From: Escherichia coli | GTDB lineage: Bacteria > Pseudomonadota > Gammaproteobacteria > Enterobacterales > Enterobacteriaceae | Strand: one strand, 5' to 3' | Assembly: GCF_002854065.1 (NCBI RefSeq) | Contig: NZ_CP024147.1 | Length of the DNA: 64,000 nucleotides | Part shown: positions 1,314-19,092 of the stretch, piece by piece | Layout: each line of letters begins with the position of its first letter | Numbering within the stretch: position 1 is the first letter of the stretch | Made by a program: the position numbers and the translations under genes | The notes under the pieces: generated by a model | Seen by the model: only the letters and a program-made list of their open reading frames with translations | Told to the model about the DNA's origin: nothing | Database searches by the model: none

Positions 1314-1323
1314 GTTAGATGTT

Positions 1324-1356
1324 AGTGGCTGTTATAGGACGGCCACTATCGTTTTA
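1324..1356 (+). terminator. rho-independent terminator-like hairpin after patD
   Basis: Inverted repeat AGTGGC...GCCACT followed by a T-run (cgtttt) just after the patD stop. Confidence 0.5.
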
Positions 1357-1522
1357 GGTTCTGAGTTTAATGGCGGTTAAGTATTAGAATGATTACATTA
1401 ATAACTAGCGTAAAAATTAGGCTAAATGTTTGATGGCGATTTTTCATCCTGTCACAGTTGATTAGCATAAGGCTTTAGAGTATCGTTATTAAACTAATAA
1501 TTTATAAGTAGAAGTATTAACA

Positions 1523-2332
1523 ATGAAAGTTCAATTGTACAAATTCACGGAAGATAAAAATAAAACCCTTACCTTCAGATGGACGAAAAAACACTTTGAG
1601 TTTTGTATGGATAATAAAATCTTTTTAAATCATAAGGGGAAGAAGTCGTATAAAGAAAGGAATTTATTTCTTTTCTCAAAAGGTGACAAGATAACAATTG
1701 AAGATAATGTTATTGCTGAAGAATATTCAACAATGCCTGTAAAAAATTTCTCCAGTGTCGGCGCTTTTTCATTTCCGACCTGTCATTTTTCAGGGAATAT
1801 ACGTATAGGTCGATTTTGTAGTATTGCATCAAATGTAAAAATAATGGGTGGAAATCATCCTTTGAATCGTTTTACTACTCACATGATGACTTATAACGGT
1901 GAATTTGATAAGTTTGCTATGAGTGAGTTTGAACGTAGCTGGACATTGAAACCATTCATTACCAAACCTGAAAATCCGATTATAGGAAATGATGTCTGGA
2001 TAGGAAATGATGTTGTATTGAAAGGTGGCATCGCAATAGGTGATGGTGCTGTTATTGCTGCCAATTCCGTTGTTACCAAAGATGTGCCCCCATATGCCAT
2101 AGTTGCAGGAGTTCCTGCAAAAATAATCAGATTTAGGTTTGATTCAAATGTTATTGATGAACTGTTGAGAATAAAATGGTGGAATTATAACTACTCAGAT
2201 CTTCCGGATAATAACAAGTGTGATGATATAAATTATTTTGTTGAAGAGATGAATCGATTGATATCAAATGGAAATATTCAAGAGAGGGACTATAAAAAAT
2301 TCAATCTTTCTGAGGTATTCAGAGGCCTATAA
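1523..2332 (+). CDS. Vat/XAT-family hexapeptide-repeat acetyltransferase (streptogramin A / chloramphenicol acetyltransferase-like)
   Basis: 269 aa ORF; left-handed beta-helix hexapeptide repeats (IGNDVWIGNDVVLKGGIAIGDGAVIAANSVVTKDVPPYAIVAGVPAKIIRFRF), GGNH putative catalytic His segment and C-terminal IKWWNY motif, all typical of Vat(D)/CatB-type xenobiotic acetyltransferases; gene lies in a visibly AT-rich stretch. Confidence 0.75.
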   Translation: MKVQLYKFTEDKNKTLTFRWTKKHFEFCMDNKIFLNHKGKKSYKERNLFLFSKGDKITIEDNVIAEEYSTMPVKNFSSVGAFSFPTCHFSGNIRIGRFCSIASNVKIMGGNHPLNRFTTHMMTYNGEFDKFAMSEFERSWTLKPFITKPENPIIGNDVWIGNDVVLKGGIAIGDGAVIAANSVVTKDVPPYAIVAGVPAKIIRFRFDSNVIDELLRIKWWNYNYSDLPDNNKCDDINYFVEEMNRLISNGNIQERDYKKFNLSEVFRGL

Positions 2333-2678
2333 TTATCTGTTTTGCATGATAAATGGGCAAGATAACCAGGGCGGGGTTTGCAATTTCAATGGGGCAGCGT
2401 CATCAAGGAGGTTGCAAACATCCTGCCATGCATATACTTTACGCCATCTTTTTATATTTGCGTTATTCCTTGAAAGTATAAAGCATTTATAGACTCCCGC
2501 GCGTATAAAGTATTCATGATAGAAAAATGTGAAAACAAGATTCCCTTTGAGTCAGTAAGCTGTTTGTATAGACGACAGTAGGGGGATGTTTTCTACTCAT
2601 TTCAATGTAGATGCCAGCAAAAAGAAGTAAATATTAAGGATAATGTTGTAAACCTGGAGAGTATGAGAAGATCTTGCG

Positions 2679-2709
2679 TACTGTCAGAGAGTTGATTTCT
2701 CTGACAGTA
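2679..2709 (-). terminator. hairpin downstream of yncL
   Basis: Perfect inverted repeat TACTGTCAGAGAG-ttgattt-CTCTGACAGTA immediately 3-prime of the yncL stop; no clear U-tract. Confidence 0.4.
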
Positions 2710-2733
2710 CGTGCTGCGTGCAAAATCACTACA

Positions 2734-2829
2734 TCAAATAAACCAGCCAAATCTCATAGAGATAAGAGTAAACAAACCAACAGCAGCAAAGACATTTATC
2801 AGTACTACAGTTCTACTGGAAACATTCAT
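2734..2829 (-). CDS. yncL: small membrane protein YncL (31 aa)
   Basis: Minus-strand ATG at 2829 to TGA at 2734 encodes MNVSSRTVVLINVFAAVGLFTLISMRFGWFI, a single-TM small protein matching recalled YncL; absent from the ORF track because it is under 60 aa. Confidence 0.7.
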   Translation of the reverse strand: MNVSSRTVVLINVFAAVGLFTLISMRFGWFI

Positions 2830-3023
2830 TTTTGCCACCTTTTATCATTGCCCCTATGTGTATAGTACGGGTTAAGAAAATCCGCAATAATACTCATTCT
2901 GAAGATGGATAAGGGCAAGTTGCTGTTTGATGTTTTTTTCTCAAACCGGTTAAAAAACTTGATGCACGTCAAAAAATGACGCATATTTGCGCGCGTTTTA
3001 TTCATCTGGCTGGACGCCCGTAC

Positions 3024-3197
3024 ATGTCTCTCTATCAACATATGCTTGTTTTTTATGCGGTTATGGCAGCAATCTCATTTCTTATCACCTGGTTTCTTTC
3101 TCACGATAAGAAACGCATCCGTTTCTTAAGCGCCTTTCTGGTGGGGGCAACATGGCCGATGAGTTTCCCGGTGGCGCTGTTGTTTTCACTGTTTTAA
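3024..3197 (+). CDS. ortT: orphan toxin OrtT (YdcX), small membrane protein
   Basis: Internal Met of ORF 2976..3197 gives the 57 aa MSLYQHMLVFYAVMAAISFLITWFLSHDKKRIRFLSAFLVGATWPMSFPVALLFSLF. Confidence 0.8.
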   Translation: MSLYQHMLVFYAVMAAISFLITWFLSHDKKRIRFLSAFLVGATWPMSFPVALLFSLF

Positions 3198-3282
3198 ATC
3201 TTACTCACTGGCTTGACGGCACCACGCAGACTTATATCATTTGGATGAATCGATAAATTTCACAAGTGGCTAAGGAGAAAGT

Positions 3283-3516
3283 ATGTCGCATCTGGATGAA
3301 GTCATCGCGCGCGTGGATGCCGCGATTGAAGAGAGCGTCATTGCCCATATGAACGAATTATTAATCGCCCTGAGCGATGACGCGGAGTTAAGTCGGGAAG
3401 ATCGCTACACCCAGCAGCAACGTCTGCGCACAGCGATCGCCCATCACGGTCGCAAGCATAAAGAAGATATGGAAGCTCGCCACGAACAGTTAACCAAAGG
3501 CGGCACCATCCTGTGA
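3283..3516 (+). CDS. ydcY: uncharacterized protein YdcY
   Basis: 77 aa ORF preceded by AAGGAGAAAG ribosome-binding site; position and size as in K-12. Confidence 0.8.
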   Translation: MSHLDEVIARVDAAIEESVIAHMNELLIALSDDAELSREDRYTQQQRLRTAIAHHGRKHKEDMEARHEQLTKGGTIL

Positions 3517-3966
3517 TTAAAATGAGCGTCTGGCCACCAGCCAGGCGCCAACCACAAGTAAAATTGCGCCACAAATTGGGCCGATCAACGCCCGTAGTGG
3601 TACGCCATGGCTGCGGAAGATATCCAGCACCAGACCGCCAATCAGCTGGCTGGCGACCAATACCGCAATAGTTGTCGCCGCTCCCACATTCTGATATCCG
3701 CTGATACTGGCGAAGACAAAAAACGATCCCAGCAAGCCAGGTATAAGTGTCCACCAGCGCACGCTGGACACCAGTTCGCCAAACCCCGCCATACCTTGTT
3801 TAAACCATAAAATAGAAACAAAGAGCACAATCCCCACCAGTGAGTTCAGCAACATGGCGATGAGAATGGTAGAGGAGGTCTGGGTGATGCGCACCATCAG
3901 CGTGTTCTGGACTACCAGACCAATTCCGGCGGCAATCAAAAAGGCAAGGGTGAGCGACTGATTCAT
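3517..3966 (-). CDS. ydcZ: inner membrane protein YdcZ (DMT-like)
   Basis: 149 aa polytopic hydrophobic ORF; 4-bp overlap with mnaT. Confidence 0.85.
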   Translation of the reverse strand: MNQSLTLAFLIAAGIGLVVQNTLMVRITQTSSTILIAMLLNSLVGIVLFVSILWFKQGMAGFGELVSSVRWWTLIPGLLGSFFVFASISGYQNVGAATTIAVLVASQLIGGLVLDIFRSHGVPLRALIGPICGAILLVVGAWLVARRSF

Positions 3967-4481
3967 CCAATCACGTCCGGTTCAGTGCGTTCGTCGAGTT
4001 GCAACTGCATAAATGTCAGATCCAGCCAGCGCCCAAATTTAGTGCCCACCTGCGGCATTTGTGCGGTGACGACAAATCCCAGCGACTGGTGCAGATGCAG
4101 CGAGGCCTGATTTTGCGATTCGATCCCGGCGACCATGACATGCTTCCCGCAATCCCGCGCTTCATCAATCAATCGGCTTAACAATTTACGCCCCAGACCT
4201 TTGCCCTGATGATCGGGATGGACATAAACCGAATGTTCCACGGTATGGCGAAAACCATCGAAACTACGCCAGTCGCCAAATGAGGCATATCCCGTCACTA
4301 CGCCATCTTCTTCACTTACCAGCACCGGATAACCTGCTATGGTCCGCGCTTCAAACCAGGCAATGCGGTTATCTGCATCCACCGTTTGGTCATTCCAGAT
4401 AGCCGCCGTATACAACACGGCGTGGTTATAAATTTCCGCAATGGCAGCACAGTCGGCTTTGCGGGCAAAACGGATGGACAT
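3963..4481 (-). CDS. mnaT: GNAT N-acetyltransferase MnaT (YncA)
   Basis: Internal start MSIRFARKADCAAIAEIYNH; GNAT motifs (HPDHQGKGLGRKLL); the ORF track's 250 aa form is an N-terminal over-extension. Confidence 0.85.
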   Translation of the reverse strand: MSIRFARKADCAAIAEIYNHAVLYTAAIWNDQTVDADNRIAWFEARTIAGYPVLVSEEDGVVTGYASFGDWRSFDGFRHTVEHSVYVHPDHQGKGLGRKLLSRLIDEARDCGKHVMVAGIESQNQASLHLHQSLGFVVTAQMPQVGTKFGRWLDLTFMQLQLDERTEPDVIG

Positions 4482-4661
4482 GTCTGGCCTCAATAAAATA
4501 ATGATGATGATGTTATCAATACTATCGAAAACAGCCCGAAGCAACGGATTCCTCGATGAAATTATTGCGTGTTGCAGAGGGGATGTGACGGCTGCAAACA
4601 AAACCAATCCCGTGAGCCTGCTACTATTGATGGATTCATGCCAAAAGCACAGGAGAGCATT

Positions 4662-5699
4662 ATGGGGCAACAAAAGCAGCGTAATCGACGTTGGGTTCTG
4701 GCCTCGCGTCCACATGGCGCACCAGTTCCGGAGAATTTCCGTCTTGAAGAAGATGATGTCGCCACACCGGGTGAAGGACAGGTGTTACTGCGCACAGTTT
4801 ATTTGTCCCTGGACCCGTATATGCGTGGACGTATGAGCGATGAGCCATCTTATTCACCGCCGGTTGATATTGGCGGCGTGATGGCCGGCGGTACGGTGAG
4901 CCGTGTCGTGGAGTCGAATCATCCTGATTATCAGCCTGGCGATTGGGTGCTGGGCTACAGTGGATGGCAGGACTATGACATATCCAGTGGTGATGATCTG
5001 GTGAAACTTGGCGATCATCCGCAAAATCCATCGTGGTCGCTGGGTATGCTGGGGATGCCAGGCTTTACCGCTTATATGGGGCTGCTGGATATCGGTCAGC
5101 CTAAAGAGGGCGAAACGTTGGTGGTAGCTGCGGCGACAGGACCAGTGGGGGCGACGGTGGGGCAAATCGGCAAACTTAAAGGTTGCAGAGTGGTGGGGGT
5201 AGCCGGTGGCGCGGATAAATGCCGCCATGCTACCGAGGTGTTAGGCTTCGATGTTTGCCTTGATCACCACGCGGACGATTTTGCCGAACAACTGGCGAAA
5301 GCGTGCCCAAAAGGTATTGATATCTATTATGAAAACGTGGGCGGTAAGGTATTTGATGCAGTGCTACCATTACTTAATACATCTGCGCGCATTCCCGTTT
5401 GTGGCTTAGTGAGCAGCTATAACGCTACAGAGCTACCACCCGGTCCGGATCGTTTACCCCTGTTGATGGCAACGGTGCTGAAAAAACGTATTCGCTTGCA
5501 AGGGTTTATTATCGCCCAGGATTATGGTCATCGCATCCATGAGTTTCAGAAGGAGATGGGGCAATGGGTGAAAGAGGATAAAATCCACTACCGCGAAGAA
5601 ATTACTGACGGTTTAGAGAATGCGCCACAGACGTTTATCGGCCTGCTGAAGGGTAAAAACTTCGGCAAAGTGGTGATCCGCGTGGCGGGTGATGATTAA
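4662..5699 (+). CDS. curA: NADPH-dependent curcumin/dihydrocurcumin reductase (MDR superfamily)
   Basis: Start MGQQKQRNRRWVLASRPHG after AGGAGAG ribosome-binding site; 345 aa; medium-chain dehydrogenase Rossmann motif AAATGPVGATVGQIGK. Confidence 0.85.
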   Translation: MGQQKQRNRRWVLASRPHGAPVPENFRLEEDDVATPGEGQVLLRTVYLSLDPYMRGRMSDEPSYSPPVDIGGVMAGGTVSRVVESNHPDYQPGDWVLGYSGWQDYDISSGDDLVKLGDHPQNPSWSLGMLGMPGFTAYMGLLDIGQPKEGETLVVAAATGPVGATVGQIGKLKGCRVVGVAGGADKCRHATEVLGFDVCLDHHADDFAEQLAKACPKGIDIYYENVGGKVFDAVLPLLNTSARIPVCGLVSSYNATELPPGPDRLPLLMATVLKKRIRLQGFIIAQDYGHRIHEFQKEMGQWVKEDKIHYREEITDGLENAPQTFIGLLKGKNFGKVVIRVAGDD

Positions 5700-5896
5700 A
5701 GTTTCAACGGCGGCGTAAGCCGCCATAAAAATCCAGGCAAAAAGCTTAATTTCAGCTTTAATTAACTAACCACGTTATTGTTATGCTGCTAATAACAACA
5801 AAGGTAAGTGGTTTATGATTATTCACTTTAATACACCAGGTGAACTCCTTCTGCCATGCAGGCAGGGTTGGACAGAAAACACGCGAAGGAATTAAA

Positions 5897-6562
5897 ATGC
5901 CTGGAACGGGAAAAATGAAACATGTCAGTTTGACTCTGCAGGTTGAGAACGACCTGAAACATCAGCTTAGTATTGGCGCACTAAAACCTGGCGCACGCCT
6001 GATTACTAAAAATCTGGCGGAGCAATTAGGTATGAGTATTACACCTGTGCGTGAAGCATTATTACGTCTGGTTTCGGTGAATGCGCTTTCTGTCGCACCA
6101 GCGCAAGCATTTACAGTTCCGGAAGTGGGGAAACGTCAATTAGACGAAATCAATCGGATCCGCTACGAACTGGAATTAATGGCAGTTGCTCTGGCTGTTG
6201 AAAACCTCACCCCGCAAGACCTGGCGGAACTCCAGGAATTGCTCGAGAAATTACAGCAGGCGCAAGAAAAGGGCGACATGGAACAAATCATTAATGTAAA
6301 CAGGCTATTTCGCTTAGCGATTTTTCATCGCTCAAATATGCCCATCCTGTGTGAGATGATTGAGCAAATGTGGGTCAGGATGGGGCCTGGTTTACATTAT
6401 CTCTATGAAGCGATTAATCCAGCGGAATTACGGGAGCATATAGAAAACTATCATCTATTACTCGCCGCGTTAAAAGCAAAAGACAAAGAGGGATGCAGAC
6501 ATTGTCTTGCTGAAATTATGCAACAAAATATTGCTATTTTATACCAGCAATACAATCGTTAA
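5897..6562 (+). CDS. mcbR: GntR-family transcriptional regulator McbR (YncC)
   Basis: 221 aa from MPGTGKMKH; N-terminal winged HTH and FCD-type C-terminal domain. Confidence 0.85.
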   Translation: MPGTGKMKHVSLTLQVENDLKHQLSIGALKPGARLITKNLAEQLGMSITPVREALLRLVSVNALSVAPAQAFTVPEVGKRQLDEINRIRYELELMAVALAVENLTPQDLAELQELLEKLQQAQEKGDMEQIINVNRLFRLAIFHRSNMPILCEMIEQMWVRMGPGLHYLYEAINPAELREHIENYHLLLAALKAKDKEGCRHCLAEIMQQNIAILYQQYNR

Positions 6563-6567
6563 AGTAA

Positions 6568-6589
6568 ATGCCCGGCAAATACCGGGCAT
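6568..6589. terminator. bidirectional hairpin between convergent mcbR and yncD
   Basis: ATGCCCGG-caaat-ACCGGGCAT palindrome between the two stop codons. Confidence 0.5.
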
Positions 6590-6597
6590 CAAGGTAA

Positions 6598-8700
6598 TTA
6601 CTCAAATCGCCATGCGATATTCACGCCGACACCATAATTTCGCCCGGGCGCAGGTTCGTAATATCGCCCGTTTGACTCATTGACAATGACAGAACCAACG
6701 TATTCTTTATCGAATAAATTATCGACACGACCAAATAAGTCCACAGTTAAATTGTGGTAATTGTATTTATACCCGGTGAATAAGCCGACGAGAGTATAAG
6801 ACGGCGCTTTGGCCGTATTTTCATCATCTGCCATAATATCGCCCATATAACGCGCTTCCGTGCCTGCATACCAACCATCTTCCGGTACATAACCTATCGA
6901 CGCAAAGCCCATATTACGGGCGATCCCTGGCATCCGATTACCGTTACAATCCTGTTCGTTGCAAACATTGCTGCGATAGGTCGCATCAAGCCAGGTCCAG
7001 GACGCGTTTACGCGAAAATCTCCCGCGAAACGTTGATCCCATGCCAGTTCAGCGCCTTGACGACGGGTCTTTCCGGCATTTTTGTAAGTCGTACGCCCAC
7101 CGCTACTGCTATCGACAACAATTTCATCATCGGTGTCGGTCTGGAACAATGCGAGACTAAGCAGCCCATCACCAATACGCGTTTTACTGCCGATCTCAAT
7201 TGTATCGTTGGTGGATGGTTTTAAACCAAAGTTCATACCGCTTTGCCCATCAGCGCGATAAGACAGCTCATTAATCGTCGGCGTTTCAAAACCTCGACCA
7301 GCTGCCAGATAGATATTCCAGGCATCAGTCATTGCATATTTTAACGATCCGGCAGGTAGCCATTTGTGATAACTGGCATCACCACTGTCATCGCCGTTAC
7401 CCGGAGTAACGTAATGGTCGTTGGAATCAAACCACACGGAGCTGTAGCGCACGCCAGCATCCAGCGACAGTTTTTCGCTCAGCTGCCACTGCGTTTGTAA
7501 ATAGGGATCGACGTTCCACATCAGATTGCGTTCGTCGCGACGCAACTCACCTTTTTGCCCGTATTCCGGCACGCCGCTATTCAGGCGGAAATTATTGTAG
7601 CCCTTGCGGTTTTCACTCATGTTTTCGTAGTTCAGACCGGTGGTGAACGTGACTGGAACGCCCAGTTCACCTCGGTGTGTCCAGCGACTGTCTATCCCCT
7701 GGTAATGGCGTTGTAGAGTAATCACGCCACCCGCGTGTGACGGGTTAAGTTGTGGTGCCATCGGGATGGACTGGTATTGGGTCGTTTCACGTTCACCTGC
7801 GTACATCATTACACTCATATCATCGCTTGCGCTAAGACTACGCTCATAACGCAACCCAGCCTGAGTTTGCTTGATGGTTTTTCGCGTGTCGTACTGTTCA
7901 GCGCGTGGCGCTTGTTGTGGATTCGCCTTCCATTCTGCTTCGGTTAATCCACCAGGATCATCTGCTTTTATATCCACACTATTGAAAATCAGGCTTAATT
8001 TGCTGACTTCATCAATGCGTACGCCCAGTTTGGCATTGGCTAAATTTTTCTGTGCGCCACTATGGTCACGGTAGCCGTGGGTCGTAAAGCGCGTGGTTGA
8101 GACGGTGTAATCGACATCGCCAGGCTGTGTACCGTCGCCCATTGCGCCCGTTGCTTTCAGCCCATAGCGCCAGCTGCCAAAACTGCCGTAGTAACTGCTG
8201 GCTTCAATGGTTGGTGGCTGTTGCCCGGTCTGGGTGGTGACATTCATTACCCCGCCAGACGCGTTGCCATACAGGGCAGAGAAGGGGCCACGCAGCACTT
8301 CTACATTTTGCACACTGCTTAAATCGATGTTGGATGTTTGCCCTTGTCCGTCGGGCATGGTGGCGGGAATACCGTCTACATACAGGCGAATACCGCGAAT
8401 TCCGTAAGTGGAGCGGGAGCCAAATCCGCGAATCGACAGCTGTAAATCTTGCGCATAGTTCTGCCGGTTTTGTACCTGCAAACCAGGCACGCTGGTCAGA
8501 GATTCAGACAAGTTGATGCGCGGTGTTGCCAGGCGCATCTCCTCGCCATCCACCACGCTTACTGCTGCTGGCGTATCCAGCTCGGAAACCACCTGCGGCG
8601 CGGCACTGACAATCATGGTTTGTTCATCAGCGGCAAAAACGGCGGGGGAAAGGACAAGCAGCGCGGACAAAACGGTCTGTCGGGCGGAAAAAATCTTCAT
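6598..8700 (-). CDS. yncD: TonB-dependent outer membrane receptor YncD
   Basis: 700 aa; signal peptide, plug and beta-barrel; C-terminal aromatic residue (NIAWRFE). Confidence 0.9.
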   Translation of the reverse strand: MKIFSARQTVLSALLVLSPAVFAADEQTMIVSAAPQVVSELDTPAAVSVVDGEEMRLATPRINLSESLTSVPGLQVQNRQNYAQDLQLSIRGFGSRSTYGIRGIRLYVDGIPATMPDGQGQTSNIDLSSVQNVEVLRGPFSALYGNASGGVMNVTTQTGQQPPTIEASSYYGSFGSWRYGLKATGAMGDGTQPGDVDYTVSTTRFTTHGYRDHSGAQKNLANAKLGVRIDEVSKLSLIFNSVDIKADDPGGLTEAEWKANPQQAPRAEQYDTRKTIKQTQAGLRYERSLSASDDMSVMMYAGERETTQYQSIPMAPQLNPSHAGGVITLQRHYQGIDSRWTHRGELGVPVTFTTGLNYENMSENRKGYNNFRLNSGVPEYGQKGELRRDERNLMWNVDPYLQTQWQLSEKLSLDAGVRYSSVWFDSNDHYVTPGNGDDSGDASYHKWLPAGSLKYAMTDAWNIYLAAGRGFETPTINELSYRADGQSGMNFGLKPSTNDTIEIGSKTRIGDGLLSLALFQTDTDDEIVVDSSSGGRTTYKNAGKTRRQGAELAWDQRFAGDFRVNASWTWLDATYRSNVCNEQDCNGNRMPGIARNMGFASIGYVPEDGWYAGTEARYMGDIMADDENTAKAPSYTLVGLFTGYKYNYHNLTVDLFGRVDNLFDKEYVGSVIVNESNGRYYEPAPGRNYGVGVNIAWRFE

Positions 8701-8835
8701 GAAAAAAGCCAGGTTAAGAATGGGAAAACGCTGTCATGGTAATAAAATTGTAAATTTATGGAAAACGAAACGGCACAATACGTTAAGTGTTTGAGAAAAT
8801 TGTAGTCGTAACGGCAAGAAATGCTCCACATTTGA

Positions 8836-8855
8836 GAAAATAATGATTACCATTC
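8836..8855. promoter_or_regulatory. Fur-box-like site in the yncD/yncE divergent promoter region
   Basis: GAAAATAATGATTACCATTC resembles the Fur consensus GATAATGATAATCATTATC; lies roughly 90-105 bp upstream of the yncE ATG. Confidence 0.35.
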
Positions 8856-8941
8856 CCATTTATAACAAGAGCGTAACGAAGATTACGCTCAGCGAAGCAC
8901 TGTGAAGCAGCAAAAATATCGGTTCATTAAAGGGAGTCGTC

Positions 8942-10003
8942 ATGCATTTACGTCATCTGTTTTCATCGCGCCTACATGGTTCATTACTGTTAGGTTCATT
9001 GCTCGTTGCTTCATCATTTAGTACGCAGGCCGCAGAAGAAATGCTGCGTAAAGCGGTAGGTAAAGGTGCCTACGAAATGGCTTATAGCCAGCAGGAGAAC
9101 GCGCTGTGGCTTGCTACTTCGCAAAGCCGCAAACTGGATAAAGGTGGCGTAGTTTATCGTCTCGATCCAGTCACTCTGGAAGTGACTCAGGCGATCCATA
9201 ACGATCTCAAGCCGTTTGGCGCTACCATTAACAACGCTACTCAAACATTGTGGTTTGGTAACACGGTAAATAGCGCGGTTACGGCGATTGATGCCAAAAC
9301 GGGAGCGGTGAAAGGGCGCCTGGTGCTGGATGATCGTAAGCGTACGGAAGAGGTGCGCCCGCTGCAACCGCGTGAGCTGGTCGCAGACGATGCCACAAAC
9401 ACCGTTTACATCAGTGGTATTGGTAAAGAGAGCGTGATTTGGGTCGTTGATGGCGAAAATATCAAACTGAAAACCGCCATCCAGAACACCGGTAAAATGA
9501 GTACCGGTCTGGCGCTGGATAGCAAAGGCAAACGTCTTTACACCACTAACGCTGACGGCGAATTGATTACCATCGACACCGCCGACAATAAAATCCTCAG
9601 CCGTAAAAAGCTGCTGGATGACGGCAAAGAGCACTTCTTTATCAACATCAGCCTTGATACCGCCAGGCAGCGTGCATTTATCACCGATTCTAAAGCGGCA
9701 GAAGTGTTAGTGGTCGATACCCGTAATGGCAATATTCTGGCGAAGGTTGCGGCACCGGAATCACTGGCTGTGCTGTTTAACCCCGCGCGTAATGAAGCCT
9801 ACGTGACGCATCGTCAGGCAGGTAAAGTCAGTGTGATTGACGCGAAAAGCTATAAAGTGGTGAAAACGTTCGATACGCCGACTCATCCGAACAGTCTGGC
9901 TCTTTCTGCCGATGGTAAAACGCTGTATGTCAGTGTGAAACAAAAATCCACTAAACAGCAGGAAGCTACCCAGCCAGACGATGTGATTCGTATAGCGCTG
10001 TAA
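8942..10003 (+). CDS. yncE: secreted beta-propeller protein YncE
   Basis: 353 aa with signal peptide (MHLRHLFSSRLHGSLLLGSLLVASSFSTQA). Confidence 0.9.
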   Translation: MHLRHLFSSRLHGSLLLGSLLVASSFSTQAAEEMLRKAVGKGAYEMAYSQQENALWLATSQSRKLDKGGVVYRLDPVTLEVTQAIHNDLKPFGATINNATQTLWFGNTVNSAVTAIDAKTGAVKGRLVLDDRKRTEEVRPLQPRELVADDATNTVYISGIGKESVIWVVDGENIKLKTAIQNTGKMSTGLALDSKGKRLYTTNADGELITIDTADNKILSRKKLLDDGKEHFFINISLDTARQRAFITDSKAAEVLVVDTRNGNILAKVAAPESLAVLFNPARNEAYVTHRQAGKVSVIDAKSYKVVKTFDTPTHPNSLALSADGKTLYVSVKQKSTKQQEATQPDDVIRIAL

Positions 10004-10031
10004 TAGACATGGGGGAGTTTGTCTTTCGTAG

Positions 10032-10061
10032 GCCAGATAAGGCGCTTGCGCCGCATCCGGC
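10032..10061. repeat. REP (repetitive extragenic palindrome) element
   Basis: GCCAGATAAGGCGCTTGCGCCGCATCCGGC matches the REP-type palindrome class. Confidence 0.5.
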
Positions 10062-10125
10062 ACGAACAAAGAGCACCTCGTCAGCAATATGAATTTGCCC
10101 GGCTCGTAGCCGGGCAATTTTGCAA

Positions 10126-11625
10126 TTAACTCGCCGTTTCAGGCTTAAATGCAATATCCTGTTTTTCTTTATCTACTTCGACTACGGGCGCAGTGCTGTG
10201 AATTTCAGCAACGCGTTTGCGCACACCAAACCAGCCTATAACCAGCAGAATACCGATAATCGGCAGCGCCGCGATAGTATAAGTCCCGTTCGGGTAATCG
10301 AACGCCATCAGCACAAGGACACTCAGTAAAAACAGTAATGTCAGCCAGGAAGTGAAGGGCGCGCCAGGCAGTTTAAAACTGACATCCGCTGCTTTGCCTT
10401 CTTTAATCGCTTTACGCAGGCGCATCTGGCACACGATGATAAACGCCCATGAAGCGATGATTCCCAGCGACGCGAAGTTCAACACAATCTCAAATACGCG
10501 CGACGGCACCAGATAGTTGAGGAATACGCCGACGACATACACAACCAGTGTCGCCAGAATCCCGGCATACGGCACATGCTGACGACTCATTTTCGCCATA
10601 AAACTCGGTGCGGAACCGCCCATCGCCATTGAGCGCAGAATACGTCCGGTGCAGTACAGACCTGAATTCAGGCTGGAGAGGGCAGCGGTCAGCACCACAA
10701 TGTTCATAATGCTGCCGATATATGGCACACCCAGTTTAGAGAAAAACGTCACGAACGGACTTTGCCCCGCCTGATACGCGCTCCACGGCAATAACATAAC
10801 CAGCAACACCACGGAGCCGACGTAAAACAGGCCAATACGCCAAATCACACTGTTAATCGCTTTAGGCACCATGGTCTGCGGATCTTTACATTCTCCGGCA
10901 GCTGTACCCACCATTTCAATGGAGGCAAAAGCAAACACTACGCCCTGAATCAACACCAGCGCAGGCAGCAAACCGTGGGGGAAGAAGCCGCCATTATCGG
11001 TGATTAAATGAAAGCCAGTGGTGTTGCCATCCAGCGGCTGACCACTACCGAGGAACACCGTACCCACGACCAAAAAGGTCACAATGGCGAGCACTTTAAT
11101 AAGCGCAAACCAGAACTCCATCTCGGCGAACCATTTCACGCCGATCATATTCATGGTGCCAACGATGGTAAGTGCAGCGAGCGCAAAGACCCACTGCGGC
11201 ACGCCGCCAAACGCACCCCAGTAATGCATATACAGAGCGACGGCGGTAATATCAACAATCCCGGTCATCGCCCAGTTGATGAAGTACATCCAACCGGCAA
11301 CATAAGCGGCTTTCTCACCCAGAAACTCACGGGCATAGGAGACAAAGCTGCCACTGGAAGGGCGATGCAATACCAGCTCACCCAACGCGCGCAGAATAAA
11401 AAACGAAAACAGGCCGCAGATTAAATAGACCAGTGCCAGCGCCGGCCCCGCCATTTGCAGTCGGGCTCCCGCGCCTAAAAACAAACCAGTACCAATCGCA
11501 CCGCCAATGGCGATCATCTGCACCTGACGATTGCCCATTGCTTTGTGATATCCCTCTTCGTGGGCATTAAGCCAGCGGCGTTTCGCAGCGTGTTGCTCTG
11601 AAGTGTCGGTGTTGTGTTTACTCAT
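10126..11625 (-). CDS. ansP: L-asparagine permease (APC family)
   Basis: Start MSKHNTDTSEQHAAKRRWLN; 499 aa; 12-TM amino acid permease. Confidence 0.9.
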   Translation of the reverse strand: MSKHNTDTSEQHAAKRRWLNAHEEGYHKAMGNRQVQMIAIGGAIGTGLFLGAGARLQMAGPALALVYLICGLFSFFILRALGELVLHRPSSGSFVSYAREFLGEKAAYVAGWMYFINWAMTGIVDITAVALYMHYWGAFGGVPQWVFALAALTIVGTMNMIGVKWFAEMEFWFALIKVLAIVTFLVVGTVFLGSGQPLDGNTTGFHLITDNGGFFPHGLLPALVLIQGVVFAFASIEMVGTAAGECKDPQTMVPKAINSVIWRIGLFYVGSVVLLVMLLPWSAYQAGQSPFVTFFSKLGVPYIGSIMNIVVLTAALSSLNSGLYCTGRILRSMAMGGSAPSFMAKMSRQHVPYAGILATLVVYVVGVFLNYLVPSRVFEIVLNFASLGIIASWAFIIVCQMRLRKAIKEGKAADVSFKLPGAPFTSWLTLLFLLSVLVLMAFDYPNGTYTIAALPIIGILLVIGWFGVRKRVAEIHSTAPVVEVDKEKQDIAFKPETAS

Positions 11626-12599
11626 TGCGCTCCCTGATTGCTTTAATGAAAAAAGTCTTTTATGTCGCCATGAACAATGTTTATTCATCCTGGCGATGAC
11701 AAGATTCACCATTATTCTTTATGGGTATAACTGTCGGCGCAGAATCCTACCTTTTATCGTGTAACGATGCAAAATAATCCCACTATAAATGTGAGGGGAT
11801 AAAGGCAGCTGGCGACAAAATAGCAACCTGATGAAATTATGACGGAAACAACCACTATTGGTTCGATGATACTCGACTGTCGCCGACTCTTTAGCCAATC
11901 GTTTGTCGCTCTGAGCGCAAGTGGTTGCAGTGGACACTGGTGTGGTTGGTTTTCGCTGATTATCATTGAATAGTGAGGGACCAGCGCATGAGTGGTTTCA
12001 GGGGTAATACGCCAAATACCAATACAATTGCTGATTAGAAATGCCAGTTGTCGAGGTCACAGAAAGTGCAAAAAATGTAAGAGTGATATCGGGTGACAAT
12101 TGTGCTATTGCCCAGCAGAAATTTTTTAAATTAGTACTGTTCCAGGGGCATTACAAACCTTAAAACATTACTTCAATATAATTAATGTGTATATCATTCT
12201 TGATATTAATTTATGAAGTGAATTTGATATATTCCGAATTCTTAATTTACATTACTAATGTATGGGACATAACGTTAAGATGGCTATGTGCAGATTAAGA
12301 TATCAGGGTGGGGCGGTAGCGTTTACAGATATTAATTAATTGATGAGAGCTATGTTATCCGCACAATCATTTACATCAGCTATTGATATTGAAGATAGAT
12401 AAATAAATATGCTGAGAATTAATGTTAAGGAATCGTAATGGGAAACTTTGATAACTTGCTTTGATTTCATTCTCTATGAAGATGATGTCATCAACACTGC
12501 ATAAAGTGGAAATATTGAACATCAAAGAGAACCATATTTAATAAATAATAACAGAGCGTTTGTGTTTATCTGAAAAATATCATTTCCAGGAGGTAGGAT

Positions 12600-13130
12600 A
12601 TGTCATTAAGGAGAATGACATCTGGTGAATTAGCATTGGCCAGATCGATTTTTGAAAATACAATTGATTATAGTAAGGTATGGATCCACAATGAAAAATA
12701 TTTGCCGGGTCAAGGGGAAAGAACAGCGATGACCCCAAACGGGGAAATGTATTATCCTGATGCTGTTTATAGTTCAGATTATTCATCGCAAACAATGCCT
12801 GGTGATCGTGAAACAGTAGCAGGTGCTTCTCACTTGTTTATTCATGAAATGATGCATGTTTGGCAATATCAGAAAGGGTATGCAGTTAAGTTGCGTGGTT
12901 TATTTTCCTGGGCGGCAAATTATCATTACGATCTTAATTTACAGTCAATTTCTTCTTATTCCATGGAACAACAAGCATCTATAGTTGCTGATTATTGGCT
13001 ATTGATTAACTATGGACTGGTGGCTGATTTGGCAAATGTTAACTATGTAGGTGATACAACTGAATCCGTTAACACTCTATCGGAAAAATACAAAAAGGTG
13101 CTTAATTTATTTCCTGCGGGTGTCATATGA
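12600..13130 (+). CDS. HExxH zincin-like protein, DUF4157-like (putative effector/toxin)
   Basis: 176 aa; strong AGGAGGTAGG ribosome-binding site; no signal peptide; motif string IDYSKVWIHNE...ERTAMTPNGEMYYP...HLFIHEMMHVWQYQ resembles my recollection of the DUF4157 consensus (DLSxVRVH...AFTxG...LLAHELxHVxQQ); AT-rich context. Confidence 0.55.
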   Translation: MSLRRMTSGELALARSIFENTIDYSKVWIHNEKYLPGQGERTAMTPNGEMYYPDAVYSSDYSSQTMPGDRETVAGASHLFIHEMMHVWQYQKGYAVKLRGLFSWAANYHYDLNLQSISSYSMEQQASIVADYWLLINYGLVADLANVNYVGDTTESVNTLSEKYKKVLNLFPAGVI

Positions 13131-13483
13131 AGAGATTCTTTTTGTTTTTCTTTTTGTCGGGATGCACTGTTGGTGATTATGTTCGCCCATTGTTACCCGG
13201 TAATGTATATTTACAAGATGGACGGGTTTGTTCAAAACCAGACGATGGAGGTATTATTTCAAATTATATTTTATATGAAGGTAAATATGGCAATGCAATA
13301 AAGCTGAAAAGAGTAACAGGTCAGTTCGACCCCGTATGTATTGACATAAGTGAGCTATCTTCAGATGTTATTTATATCGGGCAATATATGCTCTCTTCCG
13401 GAAGTAAAAAAGAATACTATGGTTTTAGAATAATTAGATCCGGAGTACGTATTTTAAGACTTGATGATAACCATATCAAATAA
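13127..13483 (+). CDS. small lipoprotein, translationally coupled partner (putative immunity/inhibitor)
   Basis: 118 aa; ATGA start/stop overlap with the upstream gene; lipobox FLSGC (signal MKRFFLFFFLSGC). Confidence 0.55.
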   Translation: MKRFFLFFFLSGCTVGDYVRPLLPGNVYLQDGRVCSKPDDGGIISNYILYEGKYGNAIKLKRVTGQFDPVCIDISELSSDVIYIGQYMLSSGSKKEYYGFRIIRSGVRILRLDDNHIK

Positions 13484-13703
13484 CAGATTAAAAATTTTAT
13501 TAGTTTCATTAATGTGCTTTAGGTGAATGTTTTCACCAGGTTAACATGACGGTGCATTCTTCAAGGCATATATGGTTGATAGTATCTTCAGTAGCTCGCA
13601 TAAGTATTGAGATGTTTTACGCCAGTTACGAATATATTGCATATTTTATTCTCTGTAAGATTTCTTATTAGCACTTAGCCATTTCTAGTTAAAAGGATTA
13701 ATT

Positions 13704-15191
13704 ATGAGTTTTGCAGCTACAGATTATCCATCCGGCGCACTAACTGGATCGGGTACACATAACGTGACTTTGAGCGGCAGCGCAGTTCCTGATGGAATGT
13801 TACTGTTTGCAAGCTTAGGGGGTACAGAAACAGTAGGGGAACTATTTACTTATTCTATTAAATTAAAAACTCCTGACATCCTGAACCTGGGCTATGTTTC
13901 CCCCGCCGCAAACCTGCAGCTCAAACCGATGGTGGGCAAAGATCTGTGCGTCCATATCGAACTGGATGGCGGCGGAAAACGTTATATCAGCGGGCTGGTG
14001 ACGGCGGCACGCGTGGCTGGTCATCAAGGACGTTCGGTGGTGTATGAACTGCGGCTCGAACCGTGGTTAAAAATACTGACCCACACTAGTGACTACAAAG
14101 CGTTTCAGAATAAAAACGTGGTGGACATCCTGGATGAGGTACTGGATGAGTATCCCTGGCCAGTGGAAAAACGGCTGGTGGAAAATTATCCGACTCGCGC
14201 CTGGCAGATGCAGTACGGTGAAACAGATTTCGCTTTTATTCAGCGCCTGATGCAGGAGTGGGGTATCTACTGGTGGTTTGAGCACAGCGAGAACAGTCAC
14301 ACGTTAGTGCTGGCTGATGCCATTAATGTCCACAAGGCATGCGCAGATTCGCCGCTGGTGTGTTATTACCAGAAAGGGCTGAAACTGGACAAGGAGTTTA
14401 TCCATACCATCACAGCAAATGAAAGTCTGCGCAGCGGACAGTGGGTGCTGAATGATTTCGACTTTATGAAGCCGCGTTCACTGCTGAAGAGCACCGTGGC
14501 TAATCCGCGTGAAACCGGCCTTGCTGAATATGAGCACTACGAATGGCCGGGAGATTACTTCACAAAGAGTGAAGGTGAAATGCTGACACGCATTCGCATG
14601 GAAGAACAGCGTAGCCCCGGTAGTCGGGTACAGGGCAGCGGCAATATTCGTACCCTGATGACAGGTTTTACCTTCACCCTGGAAAACTATCCGACAGCCG
14701 AAGTGAACCGGGAATATCTGCTGGTACAGACCACGCTATTTATACAGGACAATGCGCAACACAGCGGCCAGGAGCAGCATTTCTCTTACTCAACCAGCTT
14801 TGAACTGCATCCCACCAGCGAAGTTTACCGCCCACAACGAACCCTGAGCAAACCCCACACTAAAGGCCCGCAGAGTGCCATCGTCACCGGCCCGGCAGGG
14901 CAGGAAATCTGGACAGATAAATATGGCCGGGTGAAAGTTCAGTTTGGCTGGGATCGTTACGGTAAGAATGACGAAAACAGCTCCTGCTGGGTCCGTGTCA
15001 GTTATCCGTGGGCTGGTAAAGGATTCGGTGGCATTCAGATCCCGCGTATTGGTCAAGAAGTACTGGTGGATTTCAAAAACGGTGATCCGGATTTACCGAT
15101 AATCGTTGGGCGTACCTACAACCAGGACACCATGCCACCGTGGGGACTACCTGAACGGCGTGTACGACAGCACGGGGCACCTGCTGCGTGA
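13704..15191 (+). pseudogene. vgrG: vgrG, N-terminal portion only (T6SS spike protein), truncated
   Basis: 495 aa ORF containing the VgrG gp27/gp5 signature ([39 protein letters not shown]); the frame ends shortly after this motif, well short of a full-length VgrG. Confidence 0.75.
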
Positions 15192-15298
15192 GTTTGCTTA
15201 CGACGAAAACCACTGCATGACGCTGCACCGCCAGCCGGGCGGCGAAGGGTATTATTACCAGTGGGGCTGGTATGACGGTCCGGATGATGCGGCGTGGC
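15145..15298 (+). other. Rhs/YD-repeat-like remnant fused out of frame to the vgrG end
   Basis: Alternative frame reads [44 protein letters not shown], a YD-repeat-like pattern; short and without a proper start. Confidence 0.35.
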
Positions 15299-15513
15299 GG
15301 GCACCCCTCCGAAATCTTCACCGTGACACCCCGCCCGGTATCAAATCCGGCCTCTTTCAGCCAGTCGCCCTTAAGGTTCAGGCTGGGGTGTCGTGAGTAG
15401 TACGTGGTCATGTAGGTTTTGCTGTTTATGTGGCGGGCTCTGACATAGCCGACTTTATAGCGTCGCTGTGTTTTGGAAATGGTGACTTCTGGCGTAATAT
15501 CGTGTTCAGCCAT
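15286..15513 (-). pseudogene. SymE-like (AbrB-fold) type I toxin, N-terminal ~76 aa, 3-prime end replaced
   Basis: AGGAG ribosome-binding site plus ATG at 15513; [34 protein letters not shown] aligns with SymE (...[38 protein letters not shown]); after EGC the frame runs antisense into the Rhs/vgrG remnant. Confidence 0.5.
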
Positions 15514-15826
15514 GATTAACTACTCCTGTTAGTTGCTTGTGGTGAGCGGCTGTTACAGGCGGCCACCTGTAGCAGTCGCGTTAAATATCAACGCATTACC
15601 TTCATTACCTGCTTCATCTTCTCCTGCGTGATCGCCATATCCAGAATACGGCAGATCACTTCCTGATCGTCTGCTTTAAGCTCAGGGAAAGATCATCAGA
15701 AGTTCACTTTTTGTACTAAATAATTCGCATTTTATGTTTAAAAATTGAGATATTCCTCATTACCTGAAGCTGTTTTTTATTGCTTATACATGATCAAATA
15801 CTCCTTACATAATTAAGGAGAACAAA

Positions 15827-16963
15827 ATGGAACTTAAAAAATTGATGGAACATATTTCTATTACCCCCGATTACAGACAAGTCTGGAAAGTGGAACATAA
15901 ATTATCAGATATTCTACTGTTGACTATTTGTGCCGTTATTTCGGGTGCAGAAGGTTGGGAAGATATAGAGGATTTTGGGGAAACACATCTCGATTTTTTG
16001 AAGCAATATGGTGATTTTGAAAATGGTATTCCTGTTCACGATACCATTGCCAGAGTTGTATCCTGTATCAGCCCTACAAAATTTCATGAGTGCTTTATTA
16101 ACTGGATGCGTGATTGTCATTCTTCAGATGATAAAGACGTCATTGCAATTGATGGAAAAACGCTCCGGCATTCTTATGATAAGAGTCGCCGCAGGGGAGC
16201 GATTCATGTCATTAGTGCGTTCTCAACAATGCACAGTCTGTTCATCGGACAGATCAAGACGGATGAGAAATCTAATGAGATTACAGCTATCCCTGAACTT
16301 CTTAACATGCTGGATATTAAAGGGAAAATTATCACAACTGATACGATGGGTTGCCAGAAAGATATCGCAGAGAAGATACAAAAACAGGGCGGTGATTATT
16401 TATTCGCGGTAAAAGGTAACCAGGGGCGGCTTAATAAAGCCTTTGAGGAAAAATTTCCGCTGAAAGAATTAAATAATCCAGAGCATGACAGTTACGCAAT
16501 GAGTGAAAAGAGTCACGGCAGAGAAGAAATCCGTCTTCATATTGTTTGCGATGTCCCTGATGAACTTATTGATTTCACGTTTGAATGGAAATGGCTGAAG
16601 AAATTATGCGTGGCAGTCTCCTTTCGGTCCATAATAGCAGAACAAAAGAAAGAGCCAGAAATGACGGTCAGATATTATATCAGTTCTGATGATTTAACCC
16701 CAGAGAAGTTCGCCAGAGCAATCCGAAACCACTGGCACGTGGAGAATAAGCTGCACTGGCGTCTGGACGTGGTAATGAATGAAGACGACTGCAAAATAAG
16801 AAGAGGAAATGCAGCAGAATTATTTTCAGGGATACGGCACATTGCTATTAATATTTTGACGAATGATAAGGTATTCAAGGCAGGGTTAAGACGTAAGATG
16901 CGAAAAGCAGCCATGGACAGAAACTATCTGGCGTCAGTCCTTGCGGGGAGCGGGCTTTCGTAA
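15827..16963 (+). mobile_element. ISAs1-family transposase (Rhs-associated H-repeat protein, YdcC/YhhI-like), intact ORF
   Basis: 378 aa ORF with AAGGAGAACAAA ribosome-binding site; H-repeat protein hallmarks ([12 protein letters not shown]..., ...[32 protein letters not shown]...); inverted-repeat ends not delimited. Confidence 0.85.
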
Positions 16964-17273
16964 TCTTGCCCTGGTTCGTTGAGTTTTACTGCATTGTCGG
17001 TAATTTAGGCATCTCCTTTGTCCGTAGCTTGTTTCAGCGTCTATAATGGGCGTTAATAAATTGGCAAGTCGGGAACTAGATGTTTTCTTAATGGTATGTT
17101 GGCAGAAGAATATGTTCTGCAAGTTGAAGATTTGTTGGTGCTTTATTTAAAAGGGTGTAGTGCAAATATCTACAATTTCAAGCAGGCATTATTGTCGTAA
17201 AAACGCTTTACCGGACACACGACATTCACAATGTGTGTTAATTTTACTGACATCTTTCAAAAGGAGCGTAATC

Positions 17274-17501
17274 ATGCCGCACATCGACATTAAATGTTTT
17301 CCGCGTGAACTGGACGAACAACAAAAAGCAGCACTTGCTGCAGATATTACCGACGTTATTATTCGCCATTTGAACAGTAAAGACAGTTCGATAAGCATTG
17401 CTCTACAGCAGATTCAACCAGAATCTTGGCAAGCTATCTGGGATGCCGAAATCGCGCCCCAAATGGAGGCTTTGATAAAGAAACCCGGTTACAGCATGTA
17501 A
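17274..17501 (+). CDS. pptA: tautomerase PptA (4-oxalocrotonate tautomerase family)
   Basis: AAGGAG ribosome-binding site then [30 protein letters not shown]-terminal Pro after Met; 75 aa. Confidence 0.8.
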
Positions 17502-17504
17502 TGC

Positions 17505-18074
17505 TTAACCTGCCGTAACTCGCTTGCCGCTGGTAACAAACGTGCCAGCACCTAAATGATGCAACGTATTGAGCTTATCATCATCAAACTGCCAGCGGCC
17601 TTCGACAAATACCTGTGCGTCTGCCGCTGCTGATACTACCTCGCCAAACAGTGTGTCGTATTTTTCTTGCGCGGAAGTCGCAGGTAGCAAGCGGCACTCC
17701 ATCCACGCCAGACATTTTGCCTCGACCAGAGGCAAACCAAGTACCGGACCTTTCACAACCGGAATGCCATAGCAATTAAATTTATCTTCATCACGCCCCG
17801 ACACACTTCCCACCGCCCACGTCCAGTTAGTTGCTGCAACGCCCGGGATAACGATGCCAAATTTACCGTTATGTTCAATCAACTCCCTGGTCCATGTCGA
17901 TTTATCTACCACAATCGCCACGCGTGGAGGTTCAAACTCCACCGGCATTGACCAGGCTGCAGCCATAATGTTACGCCGCTGGGATTGCTCATCGAAACTG
18001 GTGATCAAGACCGTTGGGCCATGATTTAACAGACGGCTGGCATGGTGTAATTCTATGGGGATGAATCGGCTCAT
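17505..18074 (-). CDS. yddH: flavin reductase-like protein YddH
   Basis: Start MSRFIPIELHHASRLLNHGPTVLITS; 189 aa. Confidence 0.8.
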   Translation of the reverse strand: MSRFIPIELHHASRLLNHGPTVLITSFDEQSQRRNIMAAAWSMPVEFEPPRVAIVVDKSTWTRELIEHNGKFGIVIPGVAATNWTWAVGSVSGRDEDKFNCYGIPVVKGPVLGLPLVEAKCLAWMECRLLPATSAQEKYDTLFGEVVSAAADAQVFVEGRWQFDDDKLNTLHHLGAGTFVTSGKRVTAG

Positions 18075-18246
18075 GGTATCGCCTCGCGAAGAAGGTTTTT
18101 TTAAGCGTAGTCCGTAACGCAATAAGTAACGAAATTAACGGGATTGGCGATTTGCGAACGTGATGCATGTCCGCGATCGCACAAAATAGCCGGTGCGGCG
18201 TCTATTCCAGGTTATAAGTTGAGAAAACCACTAAGGGAAACGCCTG

Positions 18247-19092
18247 ATGACGCCCATTCTGAATCACTATTTTGCCCGTATTATCTGGTCGGGAGCTGCT
18301 GCGGTCAATATTGATACGCTTCGTGCATTGCACCTGAAACACAATTGCACCATTCCGTTTGAAAACCTCGACGTTTTGCTGCCGAGGGAAATACAGCTTG
18401 ATGATCAATCTCTGGAAGAGAAATTGGTGTTCGCCCGGCGTGGCGGTTACTGCTTTGAACAGAATGGTGTGTTTGAGCGGGTATTACGCGAGCTGGGTTT
18501 TCAAGTACGCAGTCTGTTAGGTCGCGTAGTGTTATCTAATCCGCCAGCATTACCGCCGCGTACACATCGTTTGCTGTTGGTGGAGCTGGAAGGAGAAAAA
18601 TGGATTGCTGATGTCGGTTTCGGTGGTCAGACATTGACTGCGCCGATTCGTTTAGTGGCGGATATCGCACAAATAACGCCACATGGCGAATATCGGCTTT
18701 TACAGGAAGGGGATGACTGGATTTTGCAGTTTAATCATCATCAGCACTGGCAGTCGATGTACCTTTTTGATCTCTGCGAGCAACAACAAAGCGATTATGT
18801 GATGGGTAATTTCTGGTCGGCACACTGGCCGCAATCGCATTTTCGCCATCATTTGCTGATGTGCCGCCATTTGCCGGACGGTGGCAAGCTAACGCTGACC
18901 AATTTTCATTTCACCCATTATGAAAATGGGCACGCGGTGGAGCAGCGAAATCTACCTGATGTGGCGTCGTTATATGCTGTGATGCAGGAACAGTTTGGTC
19001 TGGGCGTAGATGACGCAAAGCATGGCTTTACCGTGGATGAACTGGCGTTGGTGATGGCGGCGTTTGATACGCACCCGGAGGCGGGAAAATAA
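18247..19092 (+). CDS. nhoA: arylamine N-acetyltransferase / N-hydroxyarylamine O-acetyltransferase
   Basis: 281 aa; NAT catalytic Cys context (RGGYCFEQN). Confidence 0.9.
   Translation: MTPILNHYFARIIWSGAAAVNIDTLRALHLKHNCTIPFENLDVLLPREIQLDDQSLEEKLVFARRGGYCFEQNGVFERVLRELGFQVRSLLGRVVLSNPPALPPRTHRLLLVELEGEKWIADVGFGGQTLTAPIRLVADIAQITPHGEYRLLQEGDDWILQFNHHQHWQSMYLFDLCEQQQSDYVMGNFWSAHWPQSHFRHHLLMCRHLPDGGKLTLTNFHFTHYENGHAVEQRNLPDVASLYAVMQEQFGLGVDDAKHGFTVDELALVMAAFDTHPEAGK

Follow-up and report, generated by a model that had tools for sequence, protein, structure and literature searches.

The insertion sequence at positions 15,683 to 16,973 of the window (the whole stretch of 64,000 nucleotides of Escherichia coli DNA analysed here) is ydcC, the H-repeat of the E. 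coli RhsE locus, an ISEc1/ISEc5-like element that was already known. The explanation that best accommodates the observations as a whole, and which we consider highly probable, is that this H-repeat is an old resident of its position and a likely past sculptor of the surrounding toxin-cassette island, through deletions whose endpoints lie flush with the ends of the insertion sequence (IS).

Identity and genomic setting of the element

The segment 12096-19000 of the window is 99.97% identical to E. coli strain CUWW06, whose RefSeq annotation gives the order ansP, Rhs tip, hypothetical, vgrG (partial), symE (partial), ydcC, pptA, yddH, nhoA, yddE, narI/W/H/Z and names the corresponding copy (~99.9% identical) ydcC, with the product 'ISAs1 family transposase'. 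The gene order in the window runs ansP, Rhs tip, immunity gene, truncated vgrG, truncated symE, ydcC, pptA, yddH and nhoA, with ydcC at the distal edge of the RhsE/vgrG island, and the locus is fixed as RhsE/ydcC by the following gene:

17274..17501, + strand: pptA, the conserved core gene nearest the element on its right side

In K-12, YdcC (b1460, 'H repeat-associated putative transposase') likewise lies directly upstream of pptA-yddH-nhoA-yddE-narV, and it shares with the window the 1291-bp element, the termini and the 378-aa open reading frame (ORF). The two elements are 97.06% identical at the DNA level over positions 1-1291 and their proteins differ at 15 amino acids, A173T, G256W and A292P being among the replacements that set the window allele apart from K-12 YdcC. 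The K-12 yhhI copy at RhsB (ISEc1/ISEc5) is 97.29% identical to the window element over the full 1291 bp, and resembles it in its CAGGG...CCCTG ends, its Rhs association and the lack of direct repeats; the window element thus falls within the H-repeat group, delimited as at least 95% nucleotide identity to the K-12 H-repeats at full length. The PGAP label of the window-lineage protein is 'ISAs1 family transposase' only, not ISEc1 or ISEc5, the ISfinder names that PGAP applies to E. coli H-repeats, and among close relatives these labels vary between ISEc1, ISEc5 and plain ISAs1. The cataloguing of H-repeats, ydcC among them, goes back to the 1990s, and exactly this gene is already labeled in RefSeq, so the value of the present identification for annotation is small.

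Boundaries and termini

The boundaries of the IS were set by comparing copies with differing flanks, namely K-12 ydcC, K-12 yhhI (RhsB), SCU-113 and ST131 strain 81009, and homology to the H-repeat copies begins and ends at identical nucleotides in every comparison, which yields an element of exactly 1291 bp:

15683..16973, + strand: complete H-repeat / ISEc1-like IS of the ISAs1 family, 1291 bp, delimited by the start and stop of homology among copies
15683..15695, + strand: left terminal inverted repeat, CAGGGAAAGATCA
16961..16973, + strand: right terminal inverted repeat, TAATCTTGCCCTG (reverse complement CAGGGCAAGATTA), overlapping the transposase stop codon

The initial annotation had bracketed the element at 15700-17000, an interval that holds it except for its left end, 15683 lying 17 bp outside. 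An apparent 12-bp leftward extension of the K-12 homology (15671-15682) was rejected as BLAST over-extension, only 8 of its 12 positions matching. The left tip of the element reads CAGGGAAAG... and the right tip ...CTTGCCCTG; the left repeat and the reverse-complemented right repeat agree at 11 of 13 positions, or 14 of 20 over a longer stretch, and because of this imperfection the repeat search of the window did not pick them up. The repeats of the window element are more imperfect than the ISAs1 examples described in PMC11946415 and PMC6305408. The G+C content of the element is ~40%, versus ~50% for the flanking core genes.

Members of the ISAs1 family are elements of ~1.3 kb with a 10-bp direct repeat (PMC11946415, PMC6305408) whose inverted repeats, 14-22 bp in length, start with CAGGG (PMC11946415). 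At 1291 bp and with CAGGG-type ends, the window element lies within the family range of ~1.2-1.5 kb with CAGGG-start repeats of 14-22 bp. It shares with ISArsp11, ISPmar4 and the Frankia elements Francci3_2330/2941 a single two-domain ORF, a length of ~1.3 kb and CAGGG repeats; those elements, however, carry 10-bp direct repeats and were captured during transposition, neither of which holds for the window copy. No target-site duplication (~10 bp) is present at the window element, whose left flank ends ...GCTTTAAGCT and whose right flank begins GTTCGTTGAG..., and a duplication was absent from all six copies inspected (window, K-12 ydcC, K-12 yhhI, SCU-113, pF138-4 and an IncX4 plasmid), so that none of them displayed the classical footprint of transposition. 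Because such a duplication is the mark of a newly inserted element, which subsequent rearrangement removes, its absence argues against recent insertion and leaves membership in the ISAs1 family untouched.

An intact transposase gene with altered conserved positions

The proposal in the initial annotation that the element encodes a full-length, 378-aa H-repeat protein of the ISAs1 family with its own ribosome-binding site is corroborated throughout, and neither a frameshift nor a missing DDE region, either of which would have told against it, was found. The relevant features are as follows:

15827..16963, + strand: ydcC transposase ORF, ATG start, 378 codons, no internal stop
15815-15820: Shine-Dalgarno sequence AAGGAG of ydcC, 6 nt upstream of the ATG
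15801..15820, + strand: perfect 7-bp hairpin CTCCTTA-cataat-TAAGGAG, whose 3' arm includes the Shine-Dalgarno sequence
16151-16153, 16340-16342 and 16742-16744, + strand: ydcC catalytic codons D109, D172 and E306

The protein matches the NCBIfam equivalog NF033564 (transpos_ISAs1, 'ISAs1 family transposase') with 407.4 bits (E = 3.9e-122) against a cut-off of 70 bits, and the alignment spans model positions 1-314 of 314. In Pfam, DDE_Tnp_1_assoc (PF13808) covers residues 8-94 with 111 bits and DDE_Tnp_1 (PF01609) residues 102-343 with 107 bits, an order of two domains within a single 378-aa ORF that constitutes the architecture of the ISAs1 family. When the window protein was aligned with 39 representatives of 35-53% identity drawn from a library of 1.8 billion proteins, D109, D172 and E306 proved unchanged in all 40 sequences, down to 35% identity, and all three are present in the window protein. 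A PDB sequence search with the YdcC protein returned no relative, the top match (E = 0.22) being spurious.

An intact ydcC ORF does not necessarily amount to an active transposase, since five of the nine replacements specific to the window lineage fall on columns conserved among the 39 distant relatives. A173T adjoins the catalytic D172 at a position where alanine is found in 38 of the 39; I13T affects a position that is hydrophobic in 39 of 39; and V139F, G256W and A292P are the remaining changes at conserved columns.

Upstream of the gene, the hairpin folds with -8 kcal/mol (z = -1.67), a value that is not significant given that 14 of 200 shuffled sequences fold equally well; in read-through transcripts it may sequester the ribosome-binding site and could damp translation. 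The sole promoter candidate in the 5' region (15785-15813, 9/12) is unconvincing, as transcription from it would begin at or after the Shine-Dalgarno sequence.

An old resident under purifying selection

Several observations bear on how long the element has occupied this site. The window contains one H-repeat copy and the closest complete genome, CUWW06, carries the element in one place; across the species, 5,342 of 5,426 complete E. coli genomes match it somewhere (4,936 of them near-full-length), the median number of places per genome being five. In 2,978 of the 5,426 genomes the 3' 1 kb of the IS and 1 kb of pptA-yddH occur in one place with at least 80% of the query covered, so that the element sits at the exact pptA position in more than half of the complete E. 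coli genomes. Compared with K-12 and SCU-113, ydcC shows dS values of 0.06-0.10 and dN/dS of 0.14-0.20, next to dS of 0.04-0.19 and dN/dS of 0.10-0.31 for its neighbors yddH and yddE, and the branch leading to the window copy accumulated 13 synonymous and 9 nonsynonymous changes (P = 9e-5 against neutrality). The gene therefore diverges about as much as the genes around it and is under purifying selection. Given its shared position, neighbor-like divergence, lack of a duplication and single copy in the closest genome, the window ydcC is an old, vertically inherited resident and not a fresh insertion.

These very data invite the reading that YdcC at pptA is a domesticated transposase kept by selection at the level of the host, for instance for the turnover of orphan Rhs/SymE cassettes. 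Its syntenic position in K-12, ST131, SCU-113 and the divergent window lineage would agree with this, as would dN/dS values similar to those of the host genes yddE and yddH and the single copy found in CUWW06, U13A and ST131 strains. We nevertheless regard domestication as very improbable. The gene is lost or broken in many lineages: in E. coli B ATCC 11303 the copy is truncated by the loss of 413 bp that takes the 3' end of the IS, the copy of strain 2009C-3378 is frameshifted, and a 144-bp remnant alone remains in GN02323. Some 45% of complete genomes are without the 3' kilobase of the IS beside pptA/yddH, counted as one place with at least 80% of the query covered, and ydcC is not universally maintained in E. 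coli. Moreover, IS transposases normally show low dN/dS as well, the terminal repeats have been kept as in a mobile element, and no ydcC phenotype was found in the literature.

Decayed neighbors and shifting left junctions

To the left of the element, the initial annotation described decayed vgrG, Rhs and SymE neighbors, and this description stands: vgrG is truncated and followed by a YD-repeat fragment, symE is partial, and the Rhs tip and its immunity gene are orphans. The features of this flank are:

12600..13130: Rhs C-terminal tip, 176 aa, without an Rhs core
13127..13483: immunity lipoprotein gene, 118 aa, without an Rhs core
13704..15191: vgrG, C-terminus missing, running into a YD-repeat Rhs fragment
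15304..15513, - strand: symE remnant, N-terminal part only (CUWW06 RefSeq: C-terminus missing)
15314..15442, + strand: Rfam isrA match, antisense to the symE remnant
15588..15680, - strand: remnant of a helix-turn-helix (HTH) gene, last 30 codons plus stop, cut at most 2 bp from the left end of the IS

The HTH gene, 132 aa at full length, is cut at codon 102 in the window and is intact in strain d1-58, where it forms part of a repeated symE-HTH-primase-XerC module. The flanks of K-12 ydcC differ from those of the window right at the IS ends on both sides: on the left, K-12 has a second, decayed H-repeat (yncI), ydcD and the rhsE pseudogene, where the window has the Rhs-tip/immunity pair, the truncated vgrG and the symE and HTH remnants; on the right, positions 16974-17184 of the window are missing from K-12. 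More generally, the truncated sequence abutting the left CAGGG differs in every lineage examined. A simple insertion, according to which the left flank of the window would equal the SCU-113 sequence preceding 16974, was considered and dismissed, the only similarity found being 64 bp of symE-coding sequence.

Strain XJ34 is without positions 13826..15646 of the window. In ST131, the interval from 12309 of the window to the IS is gone and the left junction displays a 5-bp CAGGG microhomology, on account of which this particular deletion need not involve the transposase.

A nested series of probable deletions on the right

Immediately beyond the right end of the element lies a short segment, and four states of this flank can be told apart across strains:

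16974..17184, + strand: right flank, 211 bp of pptA-upstream DNA, present in the window and SCU-113, absent from K-12
SCU-113 state: full, the IS being separated from the pptA upstream region by a hypothetical gene and symE
Window state: minus the first 1211 bp relative to SCU-113
K-12 state: minus 1422 bp relative to SCU-113
ST131 state (strain 81009): minus 1681 bp relative to SCU-113, including most of pptA

All four states resume directly after the identical terminal G of ...CTTGCCCTG, and at the three right-hand breakpoints (window, K-12 and ST131) no microhomology was found. The polarity of the nested series, that is deletion as opposed to insertion, is deduced from collinearity and is not anchored by an outgroup. 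The E. albertii copy was tried as such and set aside, as it occupies a different locus (cusS ... CdiI_N orphan cassettes) and is silent on the ancestral pptA flank. By junction type, ~1,860 genomes carry that of K-12, ~500 that of ST131, 48 that of SCU-113 and no more than 29 that of the window. These figures, obtained with 100-bp queries, are approximate and inflated because pieces up to 550 bp apart were joined, on account of which the ST131-type query also takes in genomes of the K-12 type. SCU-113 further carries two H-repeat copies in direct orientation, 8.6 kb apart and with different right flanks; the two copies have one protein accession in common and show no difference across the 548 bp compared.

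Deletions anchored at one terminus, with variable distal ends and without duplication, are the classical product of intramolecular transposition, and an equivalent route takes two steps, the element first hopping locally and the two IS copies then recombining. Such adjacent deletions are known for IS1, IS903 and IS26-type elements, which the present case resembles in its fixed endpoint at the IS terminus, its variable distal ends and the lack of microhomology or duplication; unlike those, the H-repeat case is drawn from strain comparison alone, and no description of IS-adjacent deletions by H-repeats was found in the literature. In the proposed mechanism, the N-terminal domain of the transposase would bind and recognize the terminal repeats, and the DDE domain would cut at the termini and join the tips to a staggered target, active members of the family leaving a duplication of 10 bp; were that target to lie in adjacent DNA, the outcome would be a deletion free of any duplication, with one endpoint precisely at the tip of the IS.

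Has the element shaped the island, and does it still?

The suggestion made at the outset that local rearrangements could be owed to an active IS can be divided. As a statement about the evolutionary past it finds indirect support in both flanks, whose endpoints are flush with the IS, and in the four-step series on the right; as a statement about present activity it is conjectural, and the missing duplication, the single copy in the closest genome, the substitutions at conserved positions and the published record (PMC3032704) weigh against it. According to the E. coli W genome paper, transposition of H-rpt has not been observed (PMC3032704), and our literature search on ydcC function or phenotype and on H-rpt activity returned nothing beyond this statement. 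A K-12 mobilome study reports no ISAs1 circles (bioRxiv 10.1101/2024.07.17.603846), and transposition has been caught for other members of the ISAs1 family (PMC3281130, PMC11946415). Plasmids are nearly free of the element, with 24 of 72,556 plasmid records matching. Plasmid matches were discarded as a proxy for mobility, one of the three examined being a chromosomal fragment filed as a plasmid ('pBone4_4', ansP-ydcC-yddH). One H-repeat copy was found on a genuine IncX4 plasmid.

It could thus be argued that the element is an inert relic, that is, an intact ORF in an element that has ceased to transpose, if indeed it ever did so in E. coli, and that its flanks were produced by homologous recombination between H-repeats at Rhs loci, by imported Rhs/toxin cassettes and by illegitimate deletions. 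The absence of a target-site duplication from six of six copies, the published failure to observe transposition (PMC3032704), the near-absence from plasmids, the single copy in the closest genome and the window ydcC substitutions at conserved columns are all in keeping with this explanation, and ordinary deletions do occur at the locus, as exemplified by the 413 bp at the right end of the IS in E. coli B, the loss of 13826..15646 in XJ34 and the ST131 left junction with its 5-bp microhomology. We consider this explanation rather unlikely, however. On the right, three independent deletions have the final nucleotide of the IS as their exact starting point and show no microhomology, which is not expected of random illegitimate events; homologous exchange, for its part, moves junctions and cannot create them. 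In addition, the ORF has been under purifying selection in the window lineage (13 synonymous to 9 nonsynonymous changes, P = 9e-5), and the two SCU-113 copies, identical over the 548 bp compared, have different flanks.

Most likely, then, judging from the comparison of sequences among strains, the element or close copies of it sculpted the Rhs/VgrG island in the past. A bolder version, to which we would assign somewhat less than an even chance, is that the H-repeat transposase has acted repeatedly on its own termini, and possibly still does, giving rise to one-ended deletions and local duplications; this version draws on the three or more nested deletions from the terminal nucleotide, the multiple flush left junctions and the direct copies in SCU-113. 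Such activity of YdcC may prune and reshuffle the adjacent cassettes of orphan Rhs tips, immunity genes and SymE.

Implications

Within a highly plastic island of toxin cassettes, the element is the sole constant anchor, and the series of deletions flush with its termini is a footprint of the type left by a working transposase, even though H-repeat transposition has reportedly never been seen. If the repeated action of YdcC were true, the behavior of RhsE as a 'rearrangement hot spot' would be partly due to the enzymatic activity of this protein. Experimental confirmation would explain part of the variation among strains at Rhs loci, the loss of pptA in ST131 being one example. The ISAs1 family, which has been little studied and is without detectable sequence relatives among solved structures, would also gain a substrate suited to assays.

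Divergence of the window's lineage

Comparison of window positions 9001..19000 with K-12 and ST131 reveals core genes whose divergence from mainstream E. coli is unusually high, with identities of 91.8% over the 5' part of ansP and the DNA preceding it, about 93-94% over the wider yncE-ansP stretch and about 95% across pptA-nhoA. Only four of 5,426 complete genomes reach at least 99% identity over the region of the ISAs1-family H-repeat (the IS), and the window's lineage appears to be a rare, deep-branching one within E. coli. The gene nhoA (18247..19092) displays dS values of 0.36-0.38 against K-12 and SCU-113, compared with 0.04-0.19 in its flanking genes yddH, yddE and ydcC; the nhoA allele of this lineage was probably acquired by recombination with a divergent lineage of Escherichia. 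CUWW06, the complete genome closest to the window, carries an IS1B inserted at window position 12096..12104; the alignment blocks on either side of it share 9 bp, consistent with an IS1 target duplication. The insertion is absent from the window, which therefore derives from a strain other than CUWW06.

The segment upstream of pptA carries the best sigma-70-like site of the region:

17018..17047, + strand, TTGTCC-18-TATAAT, 10/12

This site falls within the 211-bp segment that has been lost from K-12, so transcription of pptA may be under different control in the two lineages. Elsewhere in the window, an Rfam match to SECIS_3 (34405..34463, + strand, 84 bits) lies just upstream of an 803-aa ORF (34459..36870, + strand) and is consistent with an ordinary selenocysteine insertion element.

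The IS and its Rhs-locus context

ST131-type genomes have lost the Rhs/vgrG island entirely, along with most of pptA, and their IS is flanked immediately by the ansP intergenic region on one side and yddH on the other (2710..4001 of the locus from strain 81009); the left end of that copy has a variant internal sequence, CAGGGAAAGATCACGTAACGCTGC..., and a similar left-end variant is also found on an IncX4 plasmid copy. At the RhsC/ybgA locus of strain d1-58, deletion of the element has left only 34 bp from its right end (14654..14687), directly adjoining a symE start.

Repeated modules at Rhs loci of the comparison strains
SCU-113, 1346..7015
d1-58, 678..5988
d1-58, 6927..12554

These modules comprise a toxin tip or papain-fold toxin, a small immunity-like ORF, symE and an HTH gene (both on the - strand), a large, primase-like CHC2 zinc-finger gene and a XerC-type tyrosine recombinase. 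In the window, the stump of such a module forms the left flank of the IS (15304..15682). Taken as a group, the modules resemble integrative cassettes for the delivery of orphan toxin/immunity pairs.

The stump also harbors a full-length Rfam match to an Hfq-binding sRNA:

15314..15442, + strand, isrA (RF01385), 119 bits against a gathering score of 51

The match overlaps, in antisense orientation, the coding part of the symE remnant, itself truncated (15304..15513, - strand). This arrangement suggests that, in Rhs/T6SS islands, toxin genes of the SymE family may have RNAs of the isrA type as antisense partners.
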